NCBI GenBank assembly: GCA_965217895.1
Contig: CBDCJV010000002.1
Location: 1,440,001-1,504,000 of the forward strand
Source of the DNA: Waterburya sp.
GTDB taxonomy: Bacteria > Cyanobacteriota > Cyanobacteriia > Cyanobacteriales > Xenococcaceae
Length of the DNA: 64,000 nt
Reading direction: 5' to 3'
The notes beneath the pieces were generated by a model, which worked only from the letters and a program-made list of their open reading frames with translations, searched no databases and was not told the DNA's origin. Both the position numbers and the translations under genes were made by a program. Below are positions 4,646-14,159 of this stretch, piece after piece. How positions within the stretch are numbered: the stretch's first letter is position 1; the number at the start of each line of letters is the position of its first letter.

Positions 4646-5812
4646 TTAATAGGTTCGACCACGCCATTTTGTCGGCTTTTTTAAGGAAGATAAAAATATC
4701 CGCACTACAGCAAAGGGATCGGCAAAAGGAGATAGCCAAAAGAAGAAAGACGAACCAGAATAGGAAGGTGCGATCGCCATCGACATTCCCCAGCGCATTA
4801 AAACTAAGAAAGCGTTCATGCTAAGTAAGGCAATAACAACGGGATAATTAATGCCTGAGCTTAGAAGATATAAGCTCAGAAATAGCATTGGTAAAGGTAA
4901 AGCCTGTACAAAGAAGAGAAACAACACATCACCCCATATCTGAGCATTTGAGGCCGCGTCTTTGAGGTCGAGCGATCGCCCCCATTCATTCCAGGTTTCT
5001 TTTGCACCTTCGTACATCTTGACCTTAATCACTTTTGAGCCATCAAAAAAGCCTACTTTATAACCCGCAGCAGCAATATTTCTGGCTAAGGTCACATCAT
5101 CACAAAAAGAGCCAGCAGCAGTTGTATAGCCATCTAGTTTTGCTAAAACTGAACGACGACATAAAAAACACTGTCCATTTGCCATGACTCTACTAGAGCT
5201 AGCTGCATCTACTCCAGCAGAATCAAAGCGATACAACAAAGTCATTAGTAAGGCAGGCTGTAATAACCATTCTCCCCTGTATTGCAGCACAAATTGCGGT
5301 GCTAAAGATACCATATCGTAGCCTTCAGCTTCAGCAACATTAAGCAAGCTAGGGATTAAACCAGGTTGAGGTTGAGTATCTGCATCTATGCCTAAAAACC
5401 ATTCACTGTGGCGCGAAGTGTGTAAATAGCCTGTGTGTAAAGCCCAAGGACGACCTACCCAGCCAGTCGGTAAAGGATGGTCAGTAATTAGCCGAAATCG
5501 AGGATCGTTTTTCCCTTCTGCTTTAACTAGATCCTGAGTGCCATCCTGGGAATTGCTATCAACTACAATGATTTCTCGAAGTTCATAAGTTTGGAGAGTC
5601 AAACCTTCCAAACAAGGAGTAATGCGTTCGGCTTCATTGAGCGTAGGCACAACAACGCTTACTTTACCGATTAGGTTAGAGTTAGCCAACTGAGGTAGTA
5701 AAGGCGAGCGCCTTCTGGCACCCTTGAATAAGCGAGATAATAAAATTGTCGTGCCTACTATTTGAGATAATAAAGTTACAAAGATCAATATATACAAAAG
5801 CTCAGAATCCAC
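4646..5812 (-). CDS. cruG: Carotenoid 2'-O-glycosyltransferase CruG (myxoxanthophyll synthesis), GT2
   Basis: VVVPTLNEA, GWVGRPWAL, IDADT, ANGQC, WGRSLDLKDA; directly downstream of cruF. Confidence 0.88.
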   Translation of the reverse strand: MDSELLYILIFVTLLSQIVGTTILLSRLFKGARRRSPLLPQLANSNLIGKVSVVVPTLNEAERITPCLEGLTLQTYELREIIVVDSNSQDGTQDLVKAEGKNDPRFRLITDHPLPTGWVGRPWALHTGYLHTSRHSEWFLGIDADTQPQPGLIPSLLNVAEAEGYDMVSLAPQFVLQYRGEWLLQPALLMTLLYRFDSAGVDAASSSRVMANGQCFLCRRSVLAKLDGYTTAAGSFCDDVTLARNIAAAGYKVGFFDGSKVIKVKMYEGAKETWNEWGRSLDLKDAASNAQIWGDVLFLFFVQALPLPMLFLSLYLLSSGINYPVVIALLSMNAFLVLMRWGMSMAIAPSYSGSSFFFWLSPFADPFAVVRIFLSSLKKPTKWRGRTY

Positions 5813-5840
5813 TCGTTACCTACTCGTTGACATTGGTTAT

Positions 5841-6024
5841 TGATGTTACGCATTTATCGATCTGTGAAGACTGGGTAGTAGGGTAATTGGGGTAGTGGGG
5901 TGTTTGGGGTAATGAGGTATTTGTGGTGGTGATGTGTTTGAGGTAATTACTCCTCTATCGACCCCTCCCCTACTCCTCTATACTTCTTGCTCACCACTCC
6001 ATGACCCCATGCTGCGTAATATCA
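5841..6024. mobile_element. MITE-like element with a G-rich ~17-bp-period repeat arm and a C-rich arm
   Basis: tgatgttacgca (5841-5852) and tgcgtaatatca (6013-6024) are 12-bp inverted repeats with 1 mismatch. Confidence 0.55.
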
Positions 6025-6025
6025 G

Positions 6026-6910
6026 TTAGTTATTAGTTGCTAGTGCATTGTCGGCAGAAACTGCCGAGGGGTTGGTTGCTATCCCATATAAAATCATCAG
6101 AGGCAAGATACCCAAGACAAACCCTAGTAGTACGGGTACATAAAATCCTGCGGCCAAACTCAAAACCGCGGCAAAAGTGAAATTGGCTAAGTAAATTGCC
6201 AGAGGCAACTTGAGATCGTTGTAGGGCAAAGTAAAAGGTTTTACTCTCCAAAGCAAGGTAGCCACCGTCATAAAAATAATTCCTGTACCCATCCAGCCTG
6301 CAAAGTTCTGATAGGGCATCCCAAAAAATGCCCCTGGTTGATCCCATACCCAAAAAGGAATTGGTGCTTGACTCATGGCAGGATCGAGGACAAAATCCCA
6401 GGAGGTAAGGCATAAGGCACCGCAAATAATTGCTCCCAACTGGCAGATCCAGTTTTTAATATTTAATCTGCTTAAACCAGCTAAGGCAATAATGTAAGCA
6501 CTAAAACCCAAATAAAACCAAGACAAGGGAATGGTAAACGGCACCAACCCCGCAATTTTATAGCCTAAACCGCTAAGATAACGATATTCGCCAAAAGGAA
6601 AGCCTGTACTAGTACCTAAAAGCTCGCTGCCTAATGATAAAGCGATCGCCGGAATCATAAAGCTTAACCAATGCCAGACTCCCAAAGTGCGATAAGCATA
6701 AAGAGCAACGGCAGCCGTAGCAAGCACCATATAGGCTACACCGCCACCAGCCATAGACCAGCCAAAAATTGTCAGACCCCATTCAAACTCGCCTAACTTT
6801 GCCAAAAAATCAGGATTGGGCAACACTAAAATAATTCCTGCCAAACCAAAAGCCATCGCCAAAATATGACTAACTAATAAATAATTTTCGGTACTGGATA
6901 CTCGCTTCAT
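6026..6910 (-). CDS. cruF: Gamma-carotene 1'-hydroxylase CruF
   Basis: ELLGTSTGFPFGEYRY, VPFTIPLSWF, WDFVLDPAM, FFGMPYQNFAGW; adjacent to cruG. Confidence 0.9.
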   Translation of the reverse strand: MKRVSSTENYLLVSHILAMAFGLAGIILVLPNPDFLAKLGEFEWGLTIFGWSMAGGGVAYMVLATAAVALYAYRTLGVWHWLSFMIPAIALSLGSELLGTSTGFPFGEYRYLSGLGYKIAGLVPFTIPLSWFYLGFSAYIIALAGLSRLNIKNWICQLGAIICGALCLTSWDFVLDPAMSQAPIPFWVWDQPGAFFGMPYQNFAGWMGTGIIFMTVATLLWRVKPFTLPYNDLKLPLAIYLANFTFAAVLSLAAGFYVPVLLGFVLGILPLMILYGIATNPSAVSADNALATNN

Positions 6911-7079: not shown

Positions 7080-7099
7080 TTAACCCGAACTCAGGTTAA
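7080..7099 (-). repeat. Second, inverted copy of the 20-bp dispersed repeat
   Basis: ttaacccgaactcaggttaa is the reverse complement of 4576-4595 with one mismatch. Confidence 0.6.
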
Positions 7100-7167
7100 G
7101 TACAACTTTTTTTGTTAATCTTTAGTTTTAGAGAAATTAAATTCTTTTTAATCTAAAGTTAACTTAA

Positions 7168-8469
7168 ATGAAAAACGCTGTCATATTTGAACAAAAGCTG
7201 GCTTCTGTGGCAGAAAATTCCGAAGAACCTGCATTTTTAACCAAAGATACCTTATTTTGGCTGCAAAACGGTCAAAAGCAACAGTTGGCTCTTCAAGACG
7301 TGGTGGGTGTTTCTTTAGTTGAGCAAGAACAAATAGATTTTCCCTGTATATTAGTTCATGCCTATCCTTTAGCTAAAAGACAGCCAAGAGTATTGCGTGA
7401 ATACTGTTTTGCTTGTCCAAATTTGAAAGTGCGATCGCAATGGCACAGGGCAATTATTAATACACTAAGAGGAAAGCCTGTCGATGCCATCCTTAAACCC
7501 CGACATTTACAGGTTGTTATTAACCCCAGCAGCGGTAAGAACAAAGCGACTCAGATATTTGAGCAGGTACGTCCTCTTTTTGACAAGAGCAATCTAGAAT
7601 ATACCGTTACCAAAACCCGTAGTGCAGCAGATACCAAAAACTTAGTTCACAACCTAAACTTGTCAAATACAGACGGACTAGTTATTGTCGGAGGAGACGG
7701 CACAATTCATGATGCGATCGCAGGTTTGATGAGTCGTTCAGATTGGGAAACGGCAATTAAACTGCCTTTAGGCATCATTCCTGGAGGCACGGGCAATGGC
7801 TTTTGTAAAACTCTATTGGAATTATCTCAAGAAGCTTACCATCCCTTAAACGCTGCTTTTTTAATTGCTAAAGGTAGGCAGCAAAGCTTCGATCTGGCTA
7901 CAGTCAAGCAAAATGGCAAAGAATACTATAGCTTTCTGTCTCTAGCCTGGGGTTTGATTAGCGATGCTGATATTGAGTCGGAAAAGCTGAAGTTTTTAGG
8001 ATCTCTAAGGTTTGATGTATATGCCTTGATACTGATTGATTTATTACGCACCTATAAAGGTAGATTTTCCTTTATTCCCCATCCAGAATGTAATATTCCC
8101 GCCAACAAAAATATCTCTAGCCAAGGAGAATGGCGCGTAATTGAAGCTGATTTTATTTTTCTTTGGGCAATGAATGTGCCTTGGGCAGCCGAGGATATGA
8201 ACGTTACTCCCCATGCCCAGTTAAACGACGGGGCGATGGACGTGCTAATTATGCGACAAGGAACATCCCGCCTGGAATTACTCAAAGCCTTGTTGCGCTG
8301 CGGTAAAGGTCAACATTTAAATTTACCCCATATGGAATACTACAAGGTTAGTGCTTTTCGGCTTGAGCCTTTAACTGACAAAGGTATCTTAGTAGTGGAT
8401 GGTGAAGTTGTAGACTACTCACCCATAGAAATGAAGATTGTTTCTAATTTAGCATACGTTAATTGTTGA
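7168..8469 (+). CDS. DAGK-superfamily lipid kinase, eukaryotic sphingosine-kinase-like, with ~110-aa N-terminal PH-like extension
   Basis: INPSSG, GGDGT, GLMSRSDWETAIKLPLGIIPGGTGN, SLAWGLISDADIESEKLKFLGSLRF, LRTYKGR, VDGE. Confidence 0.85.
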   Translation: MKNAVIFEQKLASVAENSEEPAFLTKDTLFWLQNGQKQQLALQDVVGVSLVEQEQIDFPCILVHAYPLAKRQPRVLREYCFACPNLKVRSQWHRAIINTLRGKPVDAILKPRHLQVVINPSSGKNKATQIFEQVRPLFDKSNLEYTVTKTRSAADTKNLVHNLNLSNTDGLVIVGGDGTIHDAIAGLMSRSDWETAIKLPLGIIPGGTGNGFCKTLLELSQEAYHPLNAAFLIAKGRQQSFDLATVKQNGKEYYSFLSLAWGLISDADIESEKLKFLGSLRFDVYALILIDLLRTYKGRFSFIPHPECNIPANKNISSQGEWRVIEADFIFLWAMNVPWAAEDMNVTPHAQLNDGAMDVLIMRQGTSRLELLKALLRCGKGQHLNLPHMEYYKVSAFRLEPLTDKGILVVDGEVVDYSPIEMKIVSNLAYVNC

Positions 8470-8487: not shown

Positions 8488-8587
8488 TAGACTTCTTGCG
8501 CAAATCGTCATTAACTACCTTACTAAGAGGTAAAAGGGGAAAGGGGAAAGGGAAAAGTATTAATCTATTATTCATGCAAGAGGTCTA
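8488..8587. mobile_element. ~100-bp MITE with TAGAC(T/C)TCTTGC inverted ends and internal GGGGAAA-type heptamers
   Basis: tagacttcttgc (8488-8499) and gcaagaggtcta (8576-8587). Confidence 0.65.
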
Positions 8588-10616: not shown

Positions 10617-11006
10617 CTATAAAACATCACAATCTGGGTCAAAGCTAGTCTGAGTATTGATAGTACTAGGTATTACTTGGTTTTGAATTACAACCTGACT
10701 AGGATCGGATGTGGTTGTAATTGTGTCAAGTGTAGTTGTTGTTGTGCTTTCGCTACCTGTACCAAATACGCCCAGCCACAATCCATCGGCATATTCGACA
10801 TCGACTAAATCATATCCTTCGTCCCATCGACCTTGAATTGCCCATGTAAATTCATCAATGCCACCGCCAGTTGAGTAAGCACTGAAGCCAGGATTATCGC
10901 CAAAAGTTCCAAACCACAATCCATCGGCATATTCGACATCGACTAAATCATATCCTTCGTCCCATCGACCTTGAATTGCCCATGTAAATTCATCAATGCT
11001 ACCGCC
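10617..11006 (-). pseudogene. 5'-truncated relic of a 46-aa tandem-repeat protein (IQGRWDEGYDLVDVEYADGLW; DUF7477-like)
   Basis: Identical ~85-nt blocks at 10776-10860 and 10914-10998 (138-nt period); the apparent GTG start lies within the adjacent IS-like end. Confidence 0.65.
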
Positions 11007-11210
11007 ACTCACCGCCCTAAAAGGAACAGTGATTCTAGGGATTAGGGATTGGGAATTAGGGATTAGGGATTAGGGATTAATAAGGCGCGTTTTTTGTGTG
11101 AAGATTCATACAAAAAAGCCGCCGTCGGCTACGTAGAAATTTCCGTACCCAGTCCCCCAGCCCCAATCGTCATAAATGACGGGGCTTTAAACCCATTTAT
11201 TAAATGGTAA
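11007..11210 (-). mobile_element. Non-autonomous IS200/IS605 (IS608-type) miniature element carrying TAGGGAT-type heptamers
   Basis: Minus strand: TTAC-CATTTAATAAATGGGTTT-AAAG-CCCCGTCATTTATGACG left end; GAAT-CACTGTTCCTTTTAGGGCGGTGAGT right end lacking the terminal TCAA. Confidence 0.75.
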
Positions 11211-13145: not shown

Positions 13146-14159
13146 TCAAATAGAAGGAATGTTAATCTTTAATTTTAGTGCAGGATTGTTTTCCCAGCGA
13201 TCGGCTACGTGGGCGTAAATACAGGTAGTTCGGGGATCGCTATGTCCTAATAAATCCTGTACTTGGCGCAGTTCTGCTCCCGATCGCAGTGCTAATGTAC
13301 CAGCCGTATGTCTGAGGCTATGGGCAGAAACCGTTCTCCCAGGAGTATGCTTAAGACAAGCTTGCTCTAGATATTTATCAACTACTAATCTAATACCGCG
13401 ACGGGAGATCCTATTACCAATGGAATTTGTACCTGTGGCAATAAATAATGGTCTAGTAGGCTTTAACACTTCTCCTCTTACTTCTCGTTGATGCAGATAA
13501 TCAACCAAAAGATCGGCAATATCAGGCGTAAGCGGAACAACGCGAATGCTTCTTTTACCTTCTACTCTAATGCCCAGGTTTCCTCCCTGTCTAACCAAGC
13601 TGGCAATATCAGCACGGTGAAGTTCAACAGTGCGAGGTCCTTCTAAAGCCATAATTGCTAACATGGCTTTATCCCTAGCAGATTTTAGAGTGCCATCATT
13701 AGGAATAATACCTAAAAGGCTTTCTACTTCTGTTTGCTCTAAATAAGTAATTTTCTCGGCTGGATCGCGTTTTTCTCGTGGTGGTTTAACTCCCGTGGCA
13801 GGATTAAAAGAAATTAAGCCTTTTTCTACCCCAGCCTGATAAAAACGGCGCACTACGGCAAGCTTTAAAGCAATAGTGGCTGGTTTATATTCCCTTTGCT
13901 TAATCATCCAGTGACGATACTTTTTAATGTCGTCTTTTGTTACCATTACTGGATTTAACTGACGGCGATCGCACCAATTTAAAAACTGCTGTAGCTGCCG
14001 AGTGTATGTCTTAAGGGTATCTGTAGAGGCATCCCCCGCACTCACGTCTATATCCAAAAATTCAGCAAAAACTACTAAGAGGTTATTGGTGGTAACGAGG
14101 CTCAATTGGCTTGGATTAGTAGTAGCTAGCATTAGTTTGATGCGCCTAATTTGGCACAA
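13146..14159 (-). CDS. Tyrosine recombinase/integrase, XerC/D-like, with N-terminal SAM-like domain
   Basis: GPRTVEL (catalytic R), HSLRH, LLGH, TTCIY; TLKTY...FLNW N-terminal domain. Confidence 0.92.
   Translation of the reverse strand: MCQIRRIKLMLATTNPSQLSLVTTNNLLVVFAEFLDIDVSAGDASTDTLKTYTRQLQQFLNWCDRRQLNPVMVTKDDIKKYRHWMIKQREYKPATIALKLAVVRRFYQAGVEKGLISFNPATGVKPPREKRDPAEKITYLEQTEVESLLGIIPNDGTLKSARDKAMLAIMALEGPRTVELHRADIASLVRQGGNLGIRVEGKRSIRVVPLTPDIADLLVDYLHQREVRGEVLKPTRPLFIATGTNSIGNRISRRGIRLVVDKYLEQACLKHTPGRTVSAHSLRHTAGTLALRSGAELRQVQDLLGHSDPRTTCIYAHVADRWENNPALKLKINIPSI

Follow-up and report, generated by a model that had tools for sequence, protein, structure and literature searches.

The stretch of DNA analysed here (hereafter the window: 64,000 nucleotides, positions 1,440,001 to 1,504,000 of contig CBDCJV010000002.1, assembly GCA_965217895.1) comes from the cyanobacterium Waterburya sp., whose genome is referred to below as G000, and encodes a lipid kinase of the sphingosine kinase (SPHK) type. 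The kinase is real and unusual, and its fold, conserved residues, co-occurrence with other genes and gene clustering suggest, with a probability that we put at about 0.65, that it belongs to the eukaryotic SPHK subfamily, acts on long-chain bases of the sphinganine type and primes head-group addition in a cyanobacterial inositol-phosphosphingolipid pathway. The gene and its recognizable parts are as follows.

7168..8469, + strand: sphingosine-kinase-type lipid kinase gene (433 aa; PH-fold domain and two-lobed DAGK-family kinase)
7168..7479, + strand: PH-fold domain, residues 1-104 (seven strands and a closing helix, 86-100, with the invariant W92)
7501..7905, + strand: nucleotide-binding lobe (DAGK_cat), residues 112-246, with NPxSG, GGDG and PGGTGN (Pfam PF00781, E 3.5e-28)
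7690..7701, + strand: GGDG motif; D177 is aligned to SphK1 Asp81, a proposed catalytic base
7723..7797, + strand: GLMxRxDW helix block, common to eukaryotic SPHK and not found in YegS-type rows
7939..8013, + strand: putative sphingoid head-group block SLAWG...DxDxESE...RF, by alignment to SphK1
8398..8406, + strand: DGE metal/ATP motif, equivalent to SphK1 Asp341-Gly-Glu343

The kinase and its domains

The initial annotation, made from the sequence alone, had identified the open reading frame 7168-8469 as a eukaryote-type sphingosine kinase on the basis of generic DAGK motifs and SPHK-specific blocks, all of which are present in the 433-residue translation: NPSSG, GGDG (residues 175-178), LRTYKGR and DGE (411-413), together with GLMSRSDWETAIKLPLGIIPGGTGN (186-210), SLAWGLISDADIESEKLKFLGSLRF (258-282) and QWHRAIINTLRG. 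The motif set lies far beyond what chance would give. In a phmmer search of the PDB, human SphK1 is the best match (E 1.2e-50), against 1.3e-22 for AGK and 3e-11 for DgkB, and a Foldseek search with the AlphaFold2 model of the full kinase (predicted local distance difference test, pLDDT, 86) places SphK1 chains at ranks 1-10 (E 6e-32), compared with 8e-21 for AGK and 2e-19 for DgkB. Pfam recognizes the DAGK_cat and YegS_C domains, the score for TIGR00147 (the YegS/DgkB family) is 94.1 against a cut-off of 118.65, and every NCBIfam YegS/DgkB equivalog model is far under its cut-off, so that the assignment to the SphK type and not to YegS/DgkB holds.

By alignment, the SphK1 residues Asp81, Ser168, Asp178, Arg191, Asp341 and Glu343 correspond to D177, S258, D268, R281, D411 and E413 of the window kinase. 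According to the text of the cited accounts, Asp81 and Ser168 of SphK1 hold the sphingosine head group, either Asp81 or Asp178 is the proposed catalytic base, and Asp178 binds amino-alcohol inhibitors (PMC10243590, PMC6148460, PMC8560647). Conservation was counted in an alignment of 94 rows drawn from approximately 300 candidates, in which the eukaryote-type rows are the best matches to the query, AGK is absent, and rows without names were assigned to groups by similarity and tree position. The Asp178 column is D in all 22 rows of the cyanobacterial clade and in 49 of the 50 eukaryote-type rows, but in 0/3 CERK-type, 0/6 intermediate bacterial and 0/11 YegS-type rows; the CERK-type group, which has L in this column (3/3), is thinly sampled, given that two of its three rows are CERK-like fish proteins. 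Within the cyanobacterial clade, the Asp81 column is D in 22/22 rows and the Ser168 column is S in 21/22, and R190 of the RxDW block is kept by 18 of the 22 rows of the clade and, among the eukaryote-type rows, by 47 of 50. The aligned positions that are taken to line the J-shaped single-chain tunnel of SPHK are all hydrophobic or small in the window kinase (L263, I264, F282, F331, W333, M344, L371, L375 and M389, from alignment only), and W333 and N336 in the lipid pocket are invariant. In some members of the clade (P0123, P0130, P0143) the lipid lobe retains a Cys-rich insert (Cx5CxxC) that is lost in the window protein; this insert resembles the Cx4CxxC of a malawimonad SPHK and is reminiscent of the CxxxCxxC of CERK.

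The PH-like N-terminal domain with a closing Trp helix, also proposed in the initial annotation, was borne out by modelling. Residues 1-109 modelled alone by AlphaFold2 reached a pLDDT of 87, and VIA-align matched the domain to PH/PTB domains (for the TAPP1 PH domain, Z 11.9, root-mean-square deviation 2.9, 93 residues aligned); Foldseek alone returned no PH match under E 0.001 for this domain, the rows that it did return being nonetheless PH-fold proteins. Among 199 proteins, a profile of the N-domain picked out the corresponding region of many SPHK rows of eukaryote type (best E 9e-10) and neither of the CERK-type rows of the reduced tree described below. Several clade members (P0131, P0134, P0150, L035, L180, L182) lack the domain or have it in a much shortened form, so that it appears dispensable in some lineages. 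The SPHK structures among the PDB matches are those of SphK1 only, which is without a PH domain; if the assignment is correct, the cyanobacterial enzymes would offer a small soluble SPHK with a PH domain for structural work.

Distribution and partner genes

The kinase was found in 36 of 39 genomes of the genus, 38 of 61 of the family and 5 of the 401 that sample the phylum, the last five (G000, G097, G271, G281 and G347) belonging to three families. Of 759 homologues, the best 120 show 59-93% identity to the kinase, and those with names belong to Pleurocapsa, Waterburya and Chondrocystis and are often automatically labelled sphingosine kinase. The 80 best genome loci comprise 33 cyanobacterial ones (40-93% identity) and 47 that encode YegS-like proteins of other bacteria (22-31%); none of these 80 places a clade kinase in a named non-cyanobacterial genome. 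A real cyanobacterial SphK-type clade, as initially supposed, is thus seen in the homologue, genome-locus, phylum-sample and tree data, and includes the cultured Pleurocapsa sp. CCALA 161, Waterburya agarophytonicola and Zarconia navalis. Recent transfer or contamination can be rejected because the gene forms part of a 5.2-Mb contig, its GC content at third codon positions is native (GC3 0.36, compared with 0.31-0.41 in five neighbours) and most of the genus carries it. The gene is old and vertically kept, yet patchy.

The genes that accompany the kinase form two tiers: a wider base-making tier of fatty-acyl-AMP ligase (FAAL), acyl carrier protein (ACP), an oxoamine synthase (AOS) resembling serine palmitoyltransferase (SPT) and a short-chain dehydrogenase/reductase (SDR) resembling 3-ketodihydrosphingosine reductase (KDSR), and a narrower head-group tier of the kinase, a CarS-like cytidylyltransferase, a phosphotransferase of the cytidine diphosphate (CDP)-alcohol family and inositol-3-phosphate synthase (INO1). 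The CarS-like gene occurs in 5/401 genomes of the phylum sample, exactly the five that carry the kinase, and the pattern recurs in three families. Within the family, CarS, the phosphotransferase and INO1 are each found in 36/38 kinase-positive and 0/23 kinase-negative genomes, and all four genes together in 33 of the 38; the misses are CarS in G406 and G414, the phosphotransferase in G430 and G440, and INO1 in G430 and G435. All four are absent from G431, a genome that is 99% complete. Four further kinase-bearing genomes have CarS (4/4), the AOS (3/4) and the KDSR-like SDR (3/4).

Outside the genus, a module gene (CarS, phosphotransferase, INO1, AOS or SDR) flanks the kinase at 11 of 16 distinct loci, identical proteins being counted once and only the fetched flanks considered; the remaining loci are L030, L031, L178 and two short contigs with only a radical SAM gene. 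The cluster of G281 (L154) encodes FAAL, a FAAL-ACP-AOS fusion, the KDSR-like SDR, LicD, Stealth, a GT4 glycosyltransferase, CarS and the kinase, with INO1 divergent and the AOS 4 kb from the kinase. That of L182 combines INO1, an elongase-like gene, AOS, a sphingolipid Delta4-desaturase (PF08557), KDSR, FAAL, CarS, the kinase and GT4, and that of L155 holds FAALs, ACP, AOS, the same SDR and CarS. At L156 the kinase is followed by the CDP-alcohol phosphotransferase, and L157 and L158 encode the kinase, a B12 radical SAM protein, the phosphotransferase, INO1 and FAAL. G000 itself holds all the parts in dispersed form (the kinase at C2 1,447 kb, CarS-GT4-FAAL-INO1 near C2:878-883 kb, the SDR at 2,869 kb, an ACP-AOS fusion at 3,710 kb and the phosphotransferase at 4,631 kb), and tblastn gave no match in it to the LicD, Stealth, desaturase and elongase-like genes of the other clusters. 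The initial remark that the gene stands alone is accordingly correct as to position, but co-occurrence and the clusters of other lineages connect it to a multi-gene lipid module.

Two unlike phosphotransferases, with 22-23% identity, occupy the same slot. The one at L156 resembles archaetidylinositol-phosphate synthase (NF040950, E 3.5e-35, under the cut-off). The one in G000 (C2:4630765-4631421; L270:6766-7422), possibly a second eukaryote-type gene, has weak PDB matches to CDP-alcohol phosphotransferases and carries PNIIGYxR, LYP, SHK and GNELFY, which we take to be motifs of the eukaryotic phosphatidylinositol (PI) synthase.

On the base-making side, G000 encodes, besides a true BioF, two SPT-like oxoamine synthases, the ACP-AOS fusion and a fusion with a polyketide synthase (PKS-AOS). 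The best PDB matches of the ACP-AOS are LCB2a (E 9e-67) and a bacterial SPT (6e-66), followed by KBL (4e-60) and BioF (1e-51). For the KDSR-like SDR, the closest solved relative in a PDB search is the KDSR Tsc10 (E 4.5e-32, the next match being at 4e-23), which predicts the corresponding activity, and a homologue with 61% identity to this SDR is labelled '3-dehydrosphinganine reductase' in UniRef. The SPT-like AOS clade, for which three candidates were scored per genome, was found in 24/401 genomes of the phylum sample and the SDR in 22/401, both including all five kinase genomes and 17 genomes being common to the two sets; in the family they occur in 58 and 56 of 61 genomes, respectively.

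Several observations accompany these genes. The PKS-AOS (C2:3885488-3893140, minus strand; L139:9489-17141) is a 2550-residue protein in which a single KS-AT-DH-ER-KR-ACP module is fused to the SPT-like oxoamine synthase; similar fusions occur in many family members and could make a modified long-chain base. Kinase-negative cyanobacteria with AOS and/or KDSR-like genes are represented by L273, L274, L259-L263 and L266-L269, and at L274 these genes accompany GT28 glycosyltransferases and a flippase, possibly in glycosphingolipid-type clusters. Two small genes of the PF04116 fatty-acid-hydroxylase family in G000 (C2:736878-737363 and 95691-96143) are 47-51% identical to a gene of the L155 cluster. 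An MBOAT gene beside that cluster was considered as an N-acyltransferase; its match in G000 is at just 36%, and nothing supports that role. G000 also encodes ordinary YegS-type kinases, one of which (C2:170427-171227; L143) has an in-frame TAA near its start and may be broken.

A candidate inositol-phosphosphingolipid pathway

Taking each chemical step from homology and gene context, the two tiers can be arranged in a single putative pathway. FAAL would load the ACP, and the ACP-fused SPT-like oxoamine synthase would couple the chain to serine, or to an amino acid like it, giving a 3-keto base, which the KDSR-like SDR is predicted to convert to a sphinganine-type base. The kinase, probably held at the membrane through its PH domain, would then phosphorylate carbon 1 (C1) of the base, the CarS-like enzyme would turn the lipid phosphate into a CDP-lipid, and the CDP-alcohol phosphotransferase would add inositol or inositol phosphate originating from INO1, after which the GT4 glycosyltransferase may extend the product. 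The broader proposition, that scattered cyanobacteria make inositol-phosphosphingolipids of their own by an ACP-based base synthesis, a eukaryote-style reduction, a eukaryote-derived PH-domain kinase, an archaeal-type CarS and perhaps a phosphotransferase of the eukaryotic PI synthase type, is more tentative, and we consider it to fall a little short of even odds.

A number of points weigh against the assignment of the kinase to such a pathway. The ACP-AOS scores below each of the three NCBIfam SPT cut-offs (316/640, 294/500 and 238/670 bits) and has its highest NCBIfam score on BioF (343, cut-off 426), so that the prediction of SPT activity is a works-like claim, the substrate being unreadable from similarity; according to the cited text, the one SPT candidate from cyanobacteria that had been put to the test did not work (PMC8895605). 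The AOS and the SDR are far more widespread than the kinase and must therefore have a use without it. CarS was not found in two kinase-bearing genomes, G406 (81% complete) and G414 (100%), no module gene lies beside the kinase at L030, at L031 or at any of the 32 genus-level loci, and, the genomes compared being related and not independent samples, no p-value can be attached to the co-occurrence. The match of the G000 phosphotransferase to inositol-type enzymes is weak. CarS and the PI and phosphatidylinositol phosphate (PIP) synthases are known to act on two-chain lipids, whereas SPHK pockets take one chain. No N-acyltransferase for the pathway was found: a search for LAG1/TLC ceramide synthase (PF03798) gave no match, although the control was silent too and the bacterial ceramide synthase bCerS lay outside that search; neutral ceramidase (PF04734) likewise gave no match, again with a silent control.

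The known action of CarS and the CDP-alcohol phosphotransferases on two-chain lipids (PMC4634129, in the part cited) is also the starting point of an alternative in which the kinase acts after N-acylation, that is, as a ceramide kinase like CpgB of Caulobacter, the CDP-lipid being CDP-ceramide. CpgB is described as priming ceramide before the addition of the head group (PMC12275187), and the second, stand-alone FAAL that goes with CarS and INO1 could supply the N-acyl chain; as a candidate N-acylation enzyme, which it may be, this FAAL is a matter of speculation. The window kinase, however, lacks the CxxxCxxC motif that is stated to be needed for CERK activity (PMC10331486), scores 28.4 bits with CERK_C against a cut-off of 33.5, and has the Asp178 equivalent in place of the L of the thinly sampled CERK-type rows; moreover, human SK1 and SK2 are reported not to phosphorylate ceramides (PMC6148460, in the text cited). 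We regard a ceramide kinase as improbable.

A second alternative assigns the head-group tier to a glycerol-based inositol lipid: the kinase would act on diacylglycerol (DAG) or a mono- or dialkyl glycerol, CarS would form the CDP-lipid and the phosphotransferase a phosphatidylinositol analogue, with the AOS genes as bystanders. A kinase, a cytidylyltransferase, a PI/PIP synthase and INO1 do constitute the known PI route, in archaea CarS and an enzyme like the archaetidylinositol-phosphate-synthase-like protein of L156 use glycerol ethers, and neither AOS nor KDSR tracks the kinase one to one. Against this, the residues that bind the sphingoid base do not vary within the clade, AOS and KDSR share a cluster with the kinase or CarS in each of three distinct lineages (L154, L155 and L182), that of L182 including the sphingolipid desaturase, and the ordinary YegS-type kinases are encoded in the same genome. 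We consider this possibility, too, improbable.

The initial annotation had further suggested that the substrate could come from co-occurring eukaryotes. An enzyme of eukaryotic type and a solitary gene position in the genus would suit detoxification or salvage of sphingoid bases from such neighbours, and the sphingosine kinase of Leishmania is described as detoxifying sphingoid bases (PMC6148460, in the passage cited). The genome search proposed along with that suggestion gave a divided answer: an SPT-like ACP-AOS is present, albeit below the SPT cut-offs, but no sphingosine-1-phosphate (S1P) lyase was found in G000, the sole PF00282 match being a group II decarboxylase. In addition, the near-perfect co-occurrence of the kinase with the biosynthetic CarS, phosphotransferase and INO1, its clustering with base-synthesis genes, and the SPT-like AOS, KDSR, CarS, phosphotransferase and INO1 encoded by G000 itself speak against an external source, so that a role in detoxification or salvage appears very unlikely, even if salvaged bases could enter the pathway as a secondary source. 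Priming of an endogenously made base for head-group addition thus remains our preferred interpretation. It would indicate home-made sphingolipids in a group for which, as of 2022, the cited text reports no characterised sphingolipid enzyme or free long-chain base (PMC8895605), and it names candidate genes for most steps of the synthesis as well as lineages in which they can be tested.

Origin, surroundings and relation to known systems

In a reduced tree of 54 of the 94 rows, from which virus-like rows and near-duplicates were left out, the cyanobacterial clade is monophyletic (support 95.5/100), and in three of three free tree searches it nests among eukaryote-type SPHK rows. SPHK is widespread in eukaryotes (animals, fungi, plants, haptophytes and a malawimonad), compared with about 1% of cyanobacterial genomes that carry the clade. 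Given this contrast, the shared PH domain and the SPHK-specific blocks, we consider a transfer of the kinase from eukaryotes quite probable, though short of proof. The transfer envisaged in the initial annotation is thus favoured by the maximum-likelihood trees and the PH domain, but the approximately unbiased (AU) test did not reject a bacterial grouping: on the 54 rows, placing the clade with other bacteria gives a tree that is worse by 8.9 log-likelihood (lnL) units, with p-AU 0.355 under LG+G4 and 0.421 under LG+C20.

This result leaves some room for a rival account that concerns the origin only, namely, that the clade represents an ancient bacterial lineage whose sister group comprises all SPHK and CERK of eukaryotes, with no eukaryotic transfer involved. 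On the 94 rows a search constrained to unite the clade with bacteria even exceeded a short free search by 40 lnL units, kinases intermediate between YegS and SPHK occur in bacteria (L185-L199), no donor lineage is resolved, and the composition of the gene is native. On the other hand, the three free searches, the sequence homology of the PH domain to that of eukaryote-type SPHK, the RxDW and Asp178 features lacking in CERK-type and intermediate bacterial rows, the rarity of the clade in its phylum against the breadth of SPHK in eukaryotes, and the want of a named non-cyanobacterial carrier among the 80 best loci all argue for the transfer, and a purely bacterial descent seems unlikely, if still to be taken seriously. 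Haptophyte-like rows, placed as sister of the clade by FastTree, lost that position in the IQ-TREE trees, and a viral vector was dismissed, with one distant match (25%) in viral contigs for the kinase and none for the phosphotransferase.

Two further groups of kinases came up in the searches. The intermediate proteins (L185-L188, L190, L194, L195, L197-L199) are bacterial-looking, of about 300 residues, with a WGxxxDVN...E..R..G..RY block and N or G in the Asp178 column, and they branch beside the SPHK/CERK group. SPHK-like kinases with an Asp178 equivalent and without a PH domain are encoded at L200:1755-2666 and L203:2915-3835, on contigs with 19-20% GC, and are possibly giant-virus genes.

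In the window, the kinase gene lies between two repeats, which the initial annotation had noted and which are both real genome-wide repeats:

7080..7101, no strand assigned: dispersed intergenic repeat upstream of the kinase, a 22-mer with 19 genome copies at <=2 mismatches
8488..8587, no strand assigned: element downstream of the kinase resembling a miniature inverted-repeat transposable element, with inverted ends TAGACTTCTTGC ... GCAAGAGGTCTA

Several full-length genome copies of the 8488-8587 element, 75-90% identical, start at the same base, and neither repeat has a part in the lipid pathway. A local operon in the genus was rejected: there are no conserved neighbours, and the flanks differ even at 91-93% identity. 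A promoter and terminator scan at the kinase gave nothing above shuffled sequences. The adjacent carotenoid and NADH dehydrogenase genes are ordinary. A carotenoid-synthesis gene (PF04240) and a GT2 glycosyltransferase gene at 4646-6910 are arranged divergently to the kinase gene. Two close relatives have the GT2 gene immediately upstream of the kinase and turned round compared with its orientation here, which suggests a local inversion. The window also contains an intact tyrosine recombinase gene (13146-14159) and a short open reading frame with a 33-residue direct repeat (WAIQGRWDEGYDLVDVEYADGLW twice; 10617-11012), possibly a gene remnant.

In the full-text literature, subscription papers lying outside it, we found the clade and the pathway undescribed beyond one sentence of PMC10331486 on several homologues of human CERK from cyanobacteria; these may be the clade of the window kinase, and the supplement of that paper may list the proteins. 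Eukaryotic SPHK (human SphK1/2, plant SPHK and yeast Lcb4/5) share with the window kinase the fold, the equivalents of Asp81, Ser168, Asp178, Arg191, Asp341 and Glu343, the RxDW block and a PH-fold N-domain. The window kinase differs in its bacterial host, in having the invariant W333 and N336 but not most of the long lipid-lobe insert, and in its association with a cytidylyltransferase and an inositol transferase instead of S1P lyase or signalling; if the proposal is correct, an enzyme of the eukaryotic signalling type has been reused for bacterial biosynthesis. The YegS/DgkB/BmrU proteins have the same DAGK_cat and YegS_C fold but are only 22-27% identical, comprise about 300 residues, and lack both the PH domain and Asp178.

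Among bacterial sphingolipid systems, as far as the cited texts describe them, a route through SPHK and CarS appears in none of the accounts of CpgB, PG1348 and the Bacteroides pathway. The Caulobacter CpgA-D system (PMC10331486, PMC12275187) likewise uses a lipid kinase, CpgB, to prime C1 of a sphingolipid for an anionic head group; by its description, CpgB belongs to a distinct bacterial clade, acts on ceramide and has no eukaryote-type PH domain, and CDP is put on glycerate, whereas here the membrane CarS-like enzyme suggests that CDP is put on the lipid. The dihydrosphingosine kinase dhSphK1 (PG1348) of Porphyromonas gingivalis (PMC9045371) gives long-chain-base kinase activity a bacterial precedent; as described there, it is proposed to divert the base from ceramide synthesis, and no CDP/inositol module is mentioned. 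The phosphoinositol dihydroceramide pathway of Bacteroides (BT_1522-1526; PMC9246714) also arrives at an inositol sphingolipid by means of INO1 and a CDP-alcohol phosphotransferase, but in that account an Aur1-like enzyme transfers the head group of PIP-DAG to dihydroceramide, with no long-chain-base kinase or CarS step. The order of reactions proposed here, from lipid phosphate to CDP-lipid to transfer of inositol or inositol phosphate, is that of archaeal CarS and archaetidylinositol-phosphate synthase, which belong to the same two families (PMC4634129, in the part cited); the archaeal backbone is an isoprenoid glycerol ether, whereas the cyanobacterial one would be a sphingoid base phosphorylated by SPHK. 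If so, the cyanobacterial genes represent a third way to make inositol sphingolipids, in which a CDP-sphingoid serves as the intermediate.

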